A stretch of 11,928 nucleotides of DNA from Verrucomicrobiota bacterium (GTDB lineage: Bacteria; Verrucomicrobiota; Verrucomicrobiia; Chthoniobacterales; UBA6821). Every line of letters begins with the position of its first letter. The first letter of the stretch is position 1. Where the stretch lies: assembly GCA_008932965.1 (NCBI GenBank), contig WBXG01000056.1:1-11928 (forward strand), written 5' to 3'. The notes under the pieces are model-generated. The model worked only from the letters and a program-made list of their open reading frames with translations, was not told where the DNA came from and made no database searches. A program made the translations under genes and the position numbers. Shown here one piece after another: positions 5,973-7,166 of this stretch.

Positions 5973-7166
5973 ATGGATCCTCTCTACAACAATCCTAATT
6001 CAATTCCTAGTAACTACACAGGAACCAACCCAATTACGAGCTATAGCATTGCGACAACGCATCAGATGCAGCCTTCGTACTTTAACCCAAATATTTACAA
6101 TTCATTTACGTTCAACACGATAATGGACCAATCCCAGGTAACATTTTCCACGCTCTTGGGTGAAGAGAATATTAACAACTATGCTACTTCACAAGCTTTT
6201 TTATCTACAGCAGGTGGAAACATAGATACGGTCAATACCTCTTTTTCTTACCAAACAATTGCGTTTTACTCAACTGTGGCTGGCTCTTCTACTCAATTTT
6301 CTACCTACCTTACTATCTATGCAACCGATGTATTTGTACAATCAGTAACTTTTAACTACCGTTTTGGAACAGAACTTCAAACACTCTATTTCTCTGATCA
6401 ATCAAGTACCAGTTACACATTGACTTATGAAAATATTTTTAACCAAACTAACATCAGTTCTGGAGTAAGCATAGAAACATTTTATCAAGCAAGCCCCACT
6501 TCTTCTTGGCAGGAAGTTGGATATACTTATGAAACCTTTTCTTCATATGTTCAAAGTTCAGGCCAAACTGGTCTACCAAATGCAATTGTTGGCTCAGGAA
6601 CTATTACAAACGCAACCCCTGGCTATTTTACAGGAAGTTCTACTTTTGTGAATATGCTTGGTAGTAACGTATATACGGGACTTCTTGTTACTACAAATTC
6701 TGTTATTATTTATAATAATGAACAAGTGAGTACCTACTATAGCCAATCACTTTCTTATCAAATTAATGTTGATAATCTCACAGCTTGCCTTAACAGTGTT
6801 TCACAAACTACAGGTAAGTCAAACATGGGAGAAGGAACTATTACTGTTACAAGCTTCTCGTGGGCTTGGTATAGTCTTCCTGGAACTGGTTGGACAGGAA
6901 CTCAATATACAAAGGGACATAATTATACGTTTCAAACAGAGGTTAATTCCTACCTCTGGAATACTTACGGTAGTACAATTTCAAATTCTTCGGAAGCAGT
7001 TACTCAAGTTCAATCCATCATCACTGTACAAAATAATTATTTATCCAATTCACAGACATTCTTAAATAACGCAGTCACTACTCTACAAAGTCAGGTTTCT
7101 TTAGCGGGCCAAATCATTGGCTCATTGGCATCAGCAGCTCAATCAATAATCACTAATATGGCATAA
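5973..7166 (+). CDS. 397-aa S/T/N/Y/Q-rich acidic protein with a needle-like C-terminal helix. Candidate T3SS tip, filament or sheath protein (lcrV-equivalent position), family unknown
   Basis: Long uninterrupted ORF with no signal peptide or TM segment. By my count, 3 K/R versus about 17 D/E. The last ~60 aa (EAVTQVQSIITVQNNYLSNSQTFLNNAVTTLQSQVSLAGQIIGSLASAAQSIITNMA) are helix/coiled-coil-like and end like the needle subunit (KAIIQNI). Located between the small helical ORF and the LcrH-like chaperone. Confidence 0.75.
   Translation: MDPLYNNPNSIPSNYTGTNPITSYSIATTHQMQPSYFNPNIYNSFTFNTIMDQSQVTFSTLLGEENINNYATSQAFLSTAGGNIDTVNTSFSYQTIAFYSTVAGSSTQFSTYLTIYATDVFVQSVTFNYRFGTELQTLYFSDQSSTSYTLTYENIFNQTNISSGVSIETFYQASPTSSWQEVGYTYETFSSYVQSSGQTGLPNAIVGSGTITNATPGYFTGSSTFVNMLGSNVYTGLLVTTNSVIIYNNEQVSTYYSQSLSYQINVDNLTACLNSVSQTTGKSNMGEGTITVTSFSWAWYSLPGTGWTGTQYTKGHNYTFQTEVNSYLWNTYGSTISNSSEAVTQVQSIITVQNNYLSNSQTFLNNAVTTLQSQVSLAGQIIGSLASAAQSIITNMA

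Follow-up and report, generated by a model that had tools for sequence, protein, structure and literature searches.

The locus and the gene at 5973-7166

We analyzed an 11,928-nucleotide stretch of a Verrucomicrobiota genome assembly (GenBank GCA_008932965.1, contig WBXG01000056.1, positions 1 to 11,928), hereafter called the window, which carries type III secretion system (T3SS) genes. Our subject is the open reading frame (ORF) at positions 5973 to 7166 of the forward strand, which starts with ATG and encodes a protein of 397 amino acids (aa). An initial annotation, made from the DNA letters, had proposed this protein as a new kind of T3SS tip or filament protein. On balance, we favor a reading of this kind by a modest degree, namely, that the ORF encodes a secreted, needle-distal structural protein, the SctA-type tip or tip-filament subunit of a verrucomicrobial injectisome, belonging to a previously unannotated family.

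To compare gene order, we ran every window protein by tblastn against the 22 loci that we fetched (numbered here with the prefix L; homologous proteins carry the prefix P). On the needle side of the ORF, all on the forward strand, lie the gene for an SctF needle subunit (3913-4254; PF09392, E 1.2e-6, 29.1 bits against a cutoff of 29.4), which has an N-terminal extension of ~45 aa and ends in ...AIIQNI; the gene for a tetratricopeptide repeat (TPR) protein in the needle-chaperone (CdsG/YscG) position (4307-4750), which gives weak TPR_19 and CdsG matches and is conserved in position; the gene for an SctI-like inner-rod protein (5079-5618), recognized by its C-terminal 45 aa (NF038054, E 3.3e-4; PF17001, E 1e-3; both below cutoff), whose ...LFNNQV ending is conserved and recurs in L005, L006, and L026; and a basic, helical ORF of 102 aa in the LcrG position (5658-5966). 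On the other side, on the same strand, are the gene for a TPR chaperone of the LcrH/SycD class (7227-7718; TIGR02552, 120 bits against a cutoff of 104.8), a class assignment already made in the initial annotation, the gene for a 714-aa probable major translocator (7752-9896), and a CesT-like class I chaperone gene that is conserved in position and closes the module (10177-10581; PF05932, 22.9 bits against a cutoff of 22).

The same order is kept in about 11 Chthoniobacterales metagenome-assembled genomes (MAGs). It runs from a 106-aa gene on the opposite strand through genes for a 295-aa, a 553-aa, and a GT34-like protein, one or two tandem needle genes, the TPR protein, a small ORF, the SctI-like protein, the 102-aa ORF, the homologue of the 5973-7166 gene, LcrH, the large translocator, and the CesT-like chaperone; immediately upstream, on the opposite strand, are sctJ, sctK, sctL, and sctN. 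In these MAGs, the slot of the homologues is fixed, with needle and rod genes on one side and chaperone and translocator genes on the other. The arrangement had originally been likened to lcrG-lcrV-lcrH-yopB, and this holds for the slot; membership of the 102-aa ORF in the LcrG family has no support from profiles: it matched neither the LcrG profile nor any other family profile, and its comparison with the small ORFs of L005 and L006 was not significant (E 0.07). The stop codon of the 102-aa ORF lies 6 nucleotides before the start at 5973, and the gap is 6 to 18 nucleotides in 11 of 13 loci; its product is possibly a co-chaperone or regulator. The 714-aa protein, first described as YopB-like, has two hydrophobic hairpins (residues 412-457 and 476-517), a Kyte-Doolittle maximum of 2.69, and a PALPEP (PxLxxP) motif at residue 165, making it SctE-like by architecture. 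Because it matched no family, the YopB label stands by architecture only; similarity to SseC or to the translocators of L005 was not detectable. A promoter and terminator scan of 3700-10800 gave chance-level results.

The product of 5973-7166 is unusual in composition, and a recount returned every figure of the initial annotation, including the ORF itself. Thr (60 residues), Ser (59), Asn (39), Tyr (30), and Gln (29) make up 55% of the protein, which has three Lys plus Arg, 17 Asp plus Glu, and one Cys. The protein has no transmembrane segment by hydropathy, as had been proposed, since no 19-residue Kyte-Doolittle window reaches 1.5 (maximum mean, 1.37). A signal peptide was not seen in the Pro/Asn/Tyr-rich N-terminus, which was judged by eye and not with a dedicated predictor. 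The initial annotation had pointed out eight N-x-S/T sequons, and the number 8 is confirmed, but 11.3 would be expected from the N, S/T, and P content; the count is therefore uninformative, and we rejected the sequons as an N-glycosylation signal. N268-L-T270 is the sole sequon that is invariant in the family. We also rejected a harpin-like helper, a class that is acidic, Cys-poor, and encoded near a pilus or needle gene, because the protein contains 50 Tyr plus Phe and matched no harpin profile.

An unannotated family in verrucomicrobial T3SS loci

Among 5.8 billion proteins searched, 76 were homologues (E values from 1e-36 to 1e-208), none of which carried a Pfam domain or a functional name. 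Conservation begins at Met1, an invariant residue, and is at least 90% at P3, Y5, N7, and P8. On the strength of these homologues and of conservation from the first residue, the gene at 5973-7166 is certainly real. An identical protein (P0001, 100% identity) is present in a Verrucomicrobia MAG, where the NCBI annotation gives it 347 aa; given the conservation from Met1, that annotation begins too late.

In a scan of 185,579 species genomes, all 16 matches fell in MAGs of Chthoniobacterales or other Verrucomicrobiota. Together with the source of P0001, this places the window outside the Chlamydiae, whose unsettled tip protein the initial annotation had brought up; the lineage is Verrucomicrobiota (Chthoniobacterales), and we found no confirmed chlamydial homologue. 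One partial homologue (P0073, 245 aa, 61% identity over half of the query) comes from a MAG labeled "Chlamydiota bacterium"; the label could reflect a binning error or a real transfer, and all other named sources are Verrucomicrobiota.

The family is narrow. When 1.84 billion cluster representatives were searched by profile without filters, just 22 family proteins were recovered. Beyond the close group there were a few distant proteins of 200 to 360 aa that match profile positions ~219-390 only, their N-terminal parts being different or absent; they are ~20 to 35% identical to the window protein over the whole alignment. A further large search for this distant branch returned seven proteins, none of them named.

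The distant relatives also sit among T3SS genes. In L005 (P0086) and L024 (P0093), the family gene is followed by genes for an LcrH-like protein, a protein with one transmembrane segment, a protein with two, a second LcrH-like protein, an SseC-family translocator, and a ~475-aa protein; in L005, the family gene is itself directly preceded by the needle and rod genes. L006 (P0084) has sctJ-K-L-N-O-P on one strand and, on the other, genes for a needle subunit, a chaperone-like ORF, a small ORF, an SctI-like protein, a 104-aa ORF, and the family protein. L026 (P0082) has genes for a CdsG-like protein, an 89-aa ORF, an SctI-like protein, the family protein, an SctD-like protein with an FHA domain and one transmembrane segment, a needle subunit, and LcrH. 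L025 (P0081, 201 aa) is a short contig on which the family gene is followed by an LcrH-like gene. For SctN of L006, the nearest relatives, at 63 to 69% identity, are the SctN proteins of Spartobacteria, Chthoniobacterales, Opitutaceae, and Puniceicoccales, which makes it probable that the distant branch, too, belongs to the Verrucomicrobiota. In the Opitutaceae isolate Horticoccus, which has a Ysc-like T3SS, the 21 kb that we fetched contained no family gene between the needle genes and sctJ.

We found no homologue in a T3SS-free context: every locus with enough flanking DNA was a T3SS locus or came from a T3SS-bearing MAG. Sequence searches with the window protein gave no match in Pfam, NCBIfam, or the PDB; Pfam scans of 46 plus 19 family members at E ≤ 10 returned noise (CP2, Baculo_PEP_C, and Treslin), and PDB searches with the protein and with alignments A1 and A4 returned chance or coiled-coil matches. 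The family is thus unannotated, restricted to T3SS loci, and verrucomicrobial, and it belongs to no known family. The initial impression that the protein looks like no known tip protein is borne out by the lack of any LcrV, IpaD, EspA, flagellin, or other family match, and homology, fold, and homologue searches produced neither a confident match to an unrelated family nor a homologue in a T3SS-free genome. Literature searches on tip proteins of verrucomicrobial or Chthoniobacterales T3SSs yielded nothing specific.

Predicted architecture of the protein

We modeled the full-length protein with AlphaFold2 from a 46-sequence alignment (predicted local distance difference test score [pLDDT], 68; predicted template modeling score [pTM], 0.39). 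The N-terminal 45 residues (5973-6107) are Pro/Asn/Tyr rich, conserved, and predicted to be disordered (pLDDT < 50). They carry the motifs M-x-P-x-Y-x-N-P and G-T-N-P-[LI], in which P3, Y5, N7, P8, N14, G17, N19, and P20 are at least 90% conserved, and this stretch is probably a secretion or chaperone-recognition region. Residues 46-223 (6108-6641) form a variable beta-rich domain with very long hairpins (pLDDT 55 to 93, locally ~90), with strands predicted at 56-84, 91-122, 136-171, 180-198, and 204-223; in the model, this domain is probably the exposed part.

The remainder of the protein is predicted to be a helical hairpin with an insert at its turn. Long helix A (residues 231-276; 6663-6800), the first arm, has the consensus NEQVSxYYSQSLSYQxNIxNLTAALNSVS, in which N249, E250, Y255, L260, S261, Y262, N268, L269, T270, and L273 are invariant. 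The turn holds a small insert of four strands and a short helix (289-332; 6837-6968), where alignment A2 has large indels and the length varies among distant members. Long helix B (342-396; 6996-7160) is the most conserved segment, with the consensus NNxLxNxQTFLNNAVTTLQSQVSLAGQII...IITNMA, an identity of 0.95 to 0.99 at residues 361-380, and a needle-like ending. The protein had been described as helical in only its last ~60 aa; helix A is a second predicted long helix and is equally conserved. Mean column identity is 0.64 for residues 1-50, 0.43 to 0.46 for 51-222, 0.80 for 223-285, 0.67 for 286-340, and 0.81 for 341-397. Conserved helices combined with a variable beta domain would be the pattern expected of a buried assembly core with exposed outer domains.

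When residues 215-397 were modeled separately, with distant members in the alignment, the same layout was obtained at higher scores (pLDDT, 72.7; pTM, 0.64), with helices at positions 30-62 and 125-182 of the model and the beta/alpha insert at 75-118. This pTM and the fact that the weak Foldseek matches are helical hairpins lead us to infer that the two helices probably pack as a hairpin. The weak matches of this C-terminal module comprised flagellin filament cores (E 0.65 to 8; TMq 0.27 to 0.45), prefoldin, and V-ATPase subunit D. Foldseek with the full-length model returned only pore-state chains of MACPF, pleurotolysin, gasdermin, and parasporin, with E values down to 2.7e-5 and template modeling (TM) scores of 0.05 to 0.13 (root mean square deviation, 12 to 35 Å). 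Because of these TM scores, we take the matches to reflect the long hairpins only. A beta-barrel pore-forming toxin reading was rejected as homology on the same scores and because strand amphipathicity was no better than in shuffled sequences (hydrophobic moment z = 0.1 at 170 degrees and 1.1 at 100 degrees).

Resemblance of the termini to the needle subunit

The C-terminus had been described as needle-like. In an hhalign comparison, the last 30 residues of the family align end to end with the needle C-terminus (P = 1.5e-3; probability, 16%), and the endings vary along with those of the needle, in keeping with that description. Chthoniobacterales needles end in ...AIIQN[IVL], and the family proteins end in ...IIxNI or ...IITNMA; in L005, L006, and L026, the needles end in ...QNIR, and the family members end in ...GNIR, ...SNTR, and ...SNTR, respectively.

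A second likeness lies at the N-terminus. The ~45-aa extension of the Chthoniobacterales needles starts LPTNP-x-[YF]-[YFW]-NP ... GTNPL, and the family starts M-x-P-L-Y-F-N-P ... GTNPL; hhalign of the family against the needle N-terminus gave P = 1.2e-3 over 22 columns. Among 344 ORFs of at least 80 aa from the window plus 16 other loci (without L005, L006, and duplicates), the combination of the two motifs occurred in 20, namely, 17 family members and three needles, and in nothing else. Each of these points is weak on its own, and together the termini suggest needle-type contacts and perhaps a shared recognition signal. Direct homology with the needle is a separate matter: the product of 5973-7166 matched neither PF09392 nor TIGR02105, and since the hhalign matches are short, end-anchored, and of 16 to 19% probability, we did not adopt it and regard the matches as suggestive.

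The needles of this lineage are themselves longer (105 to 117 aa) than those of L005, L006, and L026 (89 to 95 aa), the difference being the ~45-aa Pro/Asn-rich N-terminal extension. Six MAGs have tandem needle pairs that differ almost solely in this extension (L009, 7329-8153; L011, 6101-6815; L015, 7542-8256; L016, 7434-8147; L017, 2637-3362; and L022, 7530-8247).

The gene is duplicated together with an LcrH-class chaperone gene

In the loci examined, an LcrH-class gene always follows the family gene. Four MAGs contain a second copy of the family gene, each followed by a private LcrH paralogue and with no translocator gene alongside (L001/L018, 10001-11695; L019, 914-2623; L020, 10001-11686; L021, 10001-11690); the LcrH partner in L001 scores 107.5 against the TIGR02552 cutoff of 104.8. 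All four MAGs also carry the main cluster (contig pairs CAYOAN, VHCR, JAPLTJ, and JAIEQF). The four lone copies are 70 to 75% identical to one another in the family protein and 63 to 68% in LcrH, compared with at most 56% and at most 46%, respectively, to any main-cluster copy. These clade-separating identities indicate that the gene and its LcrH partner were duplicated once, as a unit, and have been kept together.

The 102-aa ORF is absent at the lone-copy loci, which makes LcrH the constant partner. The small ORF had been put forward as the chaperone; the partner retained on duplication is instead LcrH class, and on this sequence evidence the partner chaperone is probably of that class. The chaperone encoded at 7227-7718 would then probably serve both the 5973-7166 product and the translocator. 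Residues 3-8 of the family proteins fit P-x-[YFLW]-x-x-P in 42 of 46 members, and a canonical PxLxxP lies within the first 60 aa in 11 of the 46. The hexapeptide resembles the PxLxxP motif that is needed for LcrH_1 binding in CopD (PMC4068993) and is possibly a chaperone-binding site.

Further second copies and chaperones were seen in the fetched loci. L004 has a second copy at 14433-15608, which in L004 and L013 sits after the CesT-like gene. Downstream of the main cluster in L003 (14693-17506, reverse strand) there is a third LcrH-like chaperone (TIGR02552, 93.8 bits, just below the cutoff), flanked by a 378-aa protein, which presumably resembles a GT9-type glycosyltransferase (GGMGDQIM motif), and by a Ser-rich protein of 347 aa that lacks a transmembrane segment; similar LcrH-like matches lie at 13860-14279 in L011, 15750-16220 in L015, and 15526-15960 in L016. 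Read together, the loci show that class II chaperones whose partners are non-membrane proteins have undergone a lineage-specific expansion. L001 encodes a 917-aa secretin with a type II secretion system (T2SS)-type N0 domain ~7 kb from its second copy, which is reminiscent of the T2SS-like secretin of the chlamydial-type T3SS (PMC3459982). The high-GC relatives L005 (9680-12104 and 12779-15769) and L024 (9678-12310 and 13073-16085) each have two consecutive chaperone-plus-translocator sets, one of LcrH with the one-transmembrane and two-transmembrane proteins and the other of LcrH with the SseC-family and ~475-aa proteins, each set being followed by a DUF5672 gene; they are like the CopB/CopD and CopB2/CopD2 duplication of Chlamydia (PMC4068993).

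Comparison with known tip, filament, and needle proteins

LcrV/PcrV and IpaD/SipD/BipD are ~330 to 400 aa in size, similar to the window protein. The order of small ORF, 5973-7166 gene, LcrH, and translocator recalls the LcrV/PcrV operons, and the domain order of N-terminal domain, helix, distal domain, and helix is that known in general for LcrV and IpaD. The family differs from them in that none of the 65 members scanned at E ≤ 10 had a Pfam or NCBIfam match to the LcrV or IpaD families, its N-terminal domain is predicted to be all beta with extreme hairpins rather than alpha or alpha/beta, and no N-terminal self-chaperoning helical hairpin like that of IpaD/SipD/BipD is predicted.

EspA of the attaching/effacing (A/E) pathogens and Bsp22 of Bordetella use the chaperones CesAB and Btc22, whereas the likely chaperone of the window protein is a TPR protein of the LcrH class. 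In architecture, the two are closer to the family. Bsp22 consists of a helix at 26-74, a mixed alpha/beta region, and a helix at 144-204, and it has been likened to EspA as a coiled coil of two helices separated by a permissive loop (PMC12607632). The conserved module of the family, as predicted, compares with this published description in its long helix, mixed beta-alpha region, and long C-terminal helix, with a variable insert at the turn. Short family members (201 to 249 aa) are near Bsp22 in size, its C-terminal helix ending at 204; the family gene likewise lies in a T3SS cluster beside translocator genes, with a chaperone needed, and multiple antigenically variable regions are plausible. 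Differences are that none of the 65 members scanned matched the Pfam EspA family, that EspA was missing from the Foldseek list, and that the window protein adds a beta-rich domain of ~180 aa and a conserved Pro/Asn-rich N-terminus. Bsp22 and EspA have no useful sequence similarity to each other or to LcrV or IpaD (PMC12607632), and, as Abby and Rocha noted, the tip proteins of different T3SS types cannot be aligned with one another (PMC3459982). For this reason, the lack of a sequence match is expected and does not itself count against a tip protein.

With the needle subunit SctF, the family shares its C-terminal endings and the Chthoniobacterales N-terminal motif, and with SctF and flagellar axial proteins in general, the window protein shares disordered or low-confidence termini around an ordered middle; it is 3.5 times the length of the needle subunit. 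Flagellins are rich in Ser, Thr, Asn, and Gln, have almost no Cys, and carry little charge, and the composition of the window protein is similar. There was no match to the Flagellin_N/C or Flg_bb_rod profiles, and the flagellin fold matches had E values of at least 0.65.

A candidate tip or tip-filament protein and its alternatives

The conserved slot, the T3SS context of the distant relatives, the predicted architecture, the needle-like termini, the co-duplication with LcrH, and the lack of a transmembrane segment make the 5973-7166 product a credible candidate for a tip or tip-filament subunit. The T3SS restriction, the helix/mixed/helix layout, and the needle-like C-terminus uphold the original interpretation; the sequon argument, the chlamydial lineage, and an LcrG-type upstream ORF have dropped out of it.

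Secretion, chaperone binding, needle docking, and oligomeric state are what we infer for the protein, and the following course of events is proposed. In the cytoplasm, the downstream LcrH/SycD-class chaperone would keep the protein monomeric, possibly through the N-terminal P-x-Y-x-N-P hexapeptide, and the translationally coupled 102-aa ORF product might assist the chaperone. Once the needle is complete, the protein would be exported through it as a middle substrate. Helices 231-276 and 342-396 would form an antiparallel coiled-coil hairpin, whose needle-like C-terminal end (...IIxNI) would attach to the final needle subunits in the manner of tip and tip-filament proteins. Facing outward, the small beta insert and the variable, beta-rich domain at the N-terminus would touch the environment or host, and the assembly would serve as a platform for the 714-aa translocator. 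We lean slightly toward a polymer or extended structure because of the chaperone need, the paralogues, the flagellin-like composition, and the needle-like termini; the data fit a pentameric cap equally well.

Several results weigh against this proposal. Neither sequence nor structure searches matched the protein significantly to a tip, filament, or needle family, and Foldseek of its C-terminal module against the PDB gave nothing significant (best E, 0.65), IpaD(122-321) and SipD appearing only at E 7.8 to 8.3 with TM scores of ~0.2. The full-length model is of moderate quality (see above), and the ends of the would-be needle-docking helix are of low confidence. The hhalign likenesses to the needle are weak (probability, 16 to 19%) and concern short, compositionally biased segments, and the co-variation of the C-terminus with the needle rests on just two to four lineages. 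Finally, LcrH-class chaperones normally serve translocators, not tip proteins.

With LcrH as the retained partner, we consider a translocator-like role the strongest competitor, at appreciably lower probability. The protein would then be an atypical hydrophilic substitute for SctB, or a translocon accessory, that is chaperoned by LcrH, cosecreted with the 714-aa translocator, and active in pore formation or in coupling the pore to the needle. SctB proteins (YopD, PopD, IpaC, SipC, and CopD) have a C-terminal amphipathic helix and are similar in length to the window protein, whose ~390 aa are close to the sizes of SipC, IpaC, and CopD. The LcrH/SycD pairing is constant even in two-gene modules away from the cluster, no recognizable SctB-like protein with one transmembrane segment is encoded in the Chthoniobacterales main cluster, and the pore-form beta-barrel toxins that were the sole Foldseek matches of the full model, owing to the long hairpins, would also fit. 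The N-terminal P-x-Y-x-x-P, moreover, resembles the PxLxxP of translocators (PMC4068993). On the other hand, the protein lacks any hydrophobic segment (maximum Kyte-Doolittle mean, 1.37), its gene lies upstream of the chaperone gene and not downstream as for SctB, its beta periodicity is at shuffle level (z = 0.1 at 170 degrees), and the Foldseek TM scores are 0.05 to 0.13. In L005 and L024, the family coexists with pairs of one- and two-transmembrane (SctB-/SctE-like) proteins and with an SseC-family set and so is not simply an SctB substitute there. Needle docking also explains the needle-like termini better than a place in the translocon does.

We think it unlikely that the protein is a T3SS-secreted effector or adhesin without a structural role in the needle, its position in the cluster reflecting co-regulation. 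Secreted surface proteins typically have a variable, Ser/Thr/Asn/Tyr-rich, acidic, and Cys-poor body like this one, some paralogues lie away from the main cluster, and a dedicated chaperone gene beside an effector gene is generally common. Yet conservation peaks in the paired helices and at the very C-terminus rather than in the body, relatives with ~20 to 35% identity still hold the fixed position between the rod and translocator genes, the needle likeness at both termini argues for a structural role, and the chaperone is class II (LcrH) and not the effector-type class I (CesT). That it is a surface or S-layer-like (surface-layer) protein exported by another route, with a fortuitous place in the T3SS cluster, is very improbable: its composition, which resembles that of surface-layer or fiber proteins, is the sole support, against which stand the lack of a segment reaching a Kyte-Doolittle mean of 1.5, the lack of a signal peptide as judged by eye (no predictor was run), the T3SS linkage of all loci with enough flanking DNA, and the tight coupling to T3SS chaperone genes.

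Tip and tip-filament proteins are the host-sensing, host-touching part of the injectisome, and to our knowledge tip proteins outside the Proteobacteria are essentially unknown; CT584 is the proposed but debated tip protein of the Chlamydiae. The most likely description of the gene at 5973-7166 is that of a new, unannotated family filling the known SctA-type role with a body and a likely chaperone that are both unusual. Confirmation would place a further architecture beside LcrV, IpaD, EspA, and Bsp22, provide a marker for verrucomicrobial injectisomes where genes are now labeled "hypothetical protein," suggest that middle substrates other than membrane proteins can be served by an LcrH-class chaperone, and mark the uncultured, low-GC Chthoniobacterales as bacteria that likely associate with eukaryotic hosts. 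The scope of the finding is narrowed by the uncultured state of the organisms, the narrowness of the family (22 of 1.84 billion representatives), and the lack of a confirmed chlamydial homologue; as the lineage is not chlamydial, the result has no direct bearing on the chlamydial tip question.

Additional features of the locus

Three genes precede the needle gene in the window. They encode a 295-aa protein (619-1506) without a match; a 553-aa protein (1512-3173), also without a match, in which we read by eye a G-x-G-x-G stretch (EVGSGFGINA); and a 203-aa GT34-like glycosyltransferase (3208-3819; PF05637, E 6.5e-10), in which WIDADAF contains a DAD motif. The trio lies directly upstream of the needle gene in ~11 Chthoniobacterales MAGs, with only two of the genes, differently arranged, in L014; it is missing from L005 and L006, where the needles are without the N-terminal extension. 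By analogy with flagellin glycosylation islands, the trio could modify the needle, the 5973-7166 product, or both. A more elaborate picture, which we regard as rather improbable, is that the family protein forms a polymer appendage that continues the needle by its helical hairpins, with the ~100-Å beta-hairpins as an outer sheath; the N-terminal tag shared with the needle (P-x-Y-x-N-P ... GTNPL) would be recognized or modified, for example, glycosylated, by the trio, and the tandem needles and the second copies with their private LcrH chaperones would be antigenic or host-range variants.

The translocator gene at 7752-9896 contains a 171-nucleotide tandem repeat (8304-8629; 1.9 copies, 93% identical), which encodes a duplicated, Ser/Pro/Ala-rich segment of 57 aa in the N-terminal half of the protein, and a second, short repeat of 21 nucleotides at 9321-9376. 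The 714-aa protein diverges fast, with 26 to 32% local identity to orthologues where the neighboring genes are 60 to 80% identical. After the CesT-like gene come a tRNA-Leu (anticodon AAG; 10750-10830) and, on the reverse strand, the gene for a rhomboid-family membrane protein with a Cys-rich C-terminal tail (10924-11715; PF01694, E 2e-6), which marks the end of the T3SS module.

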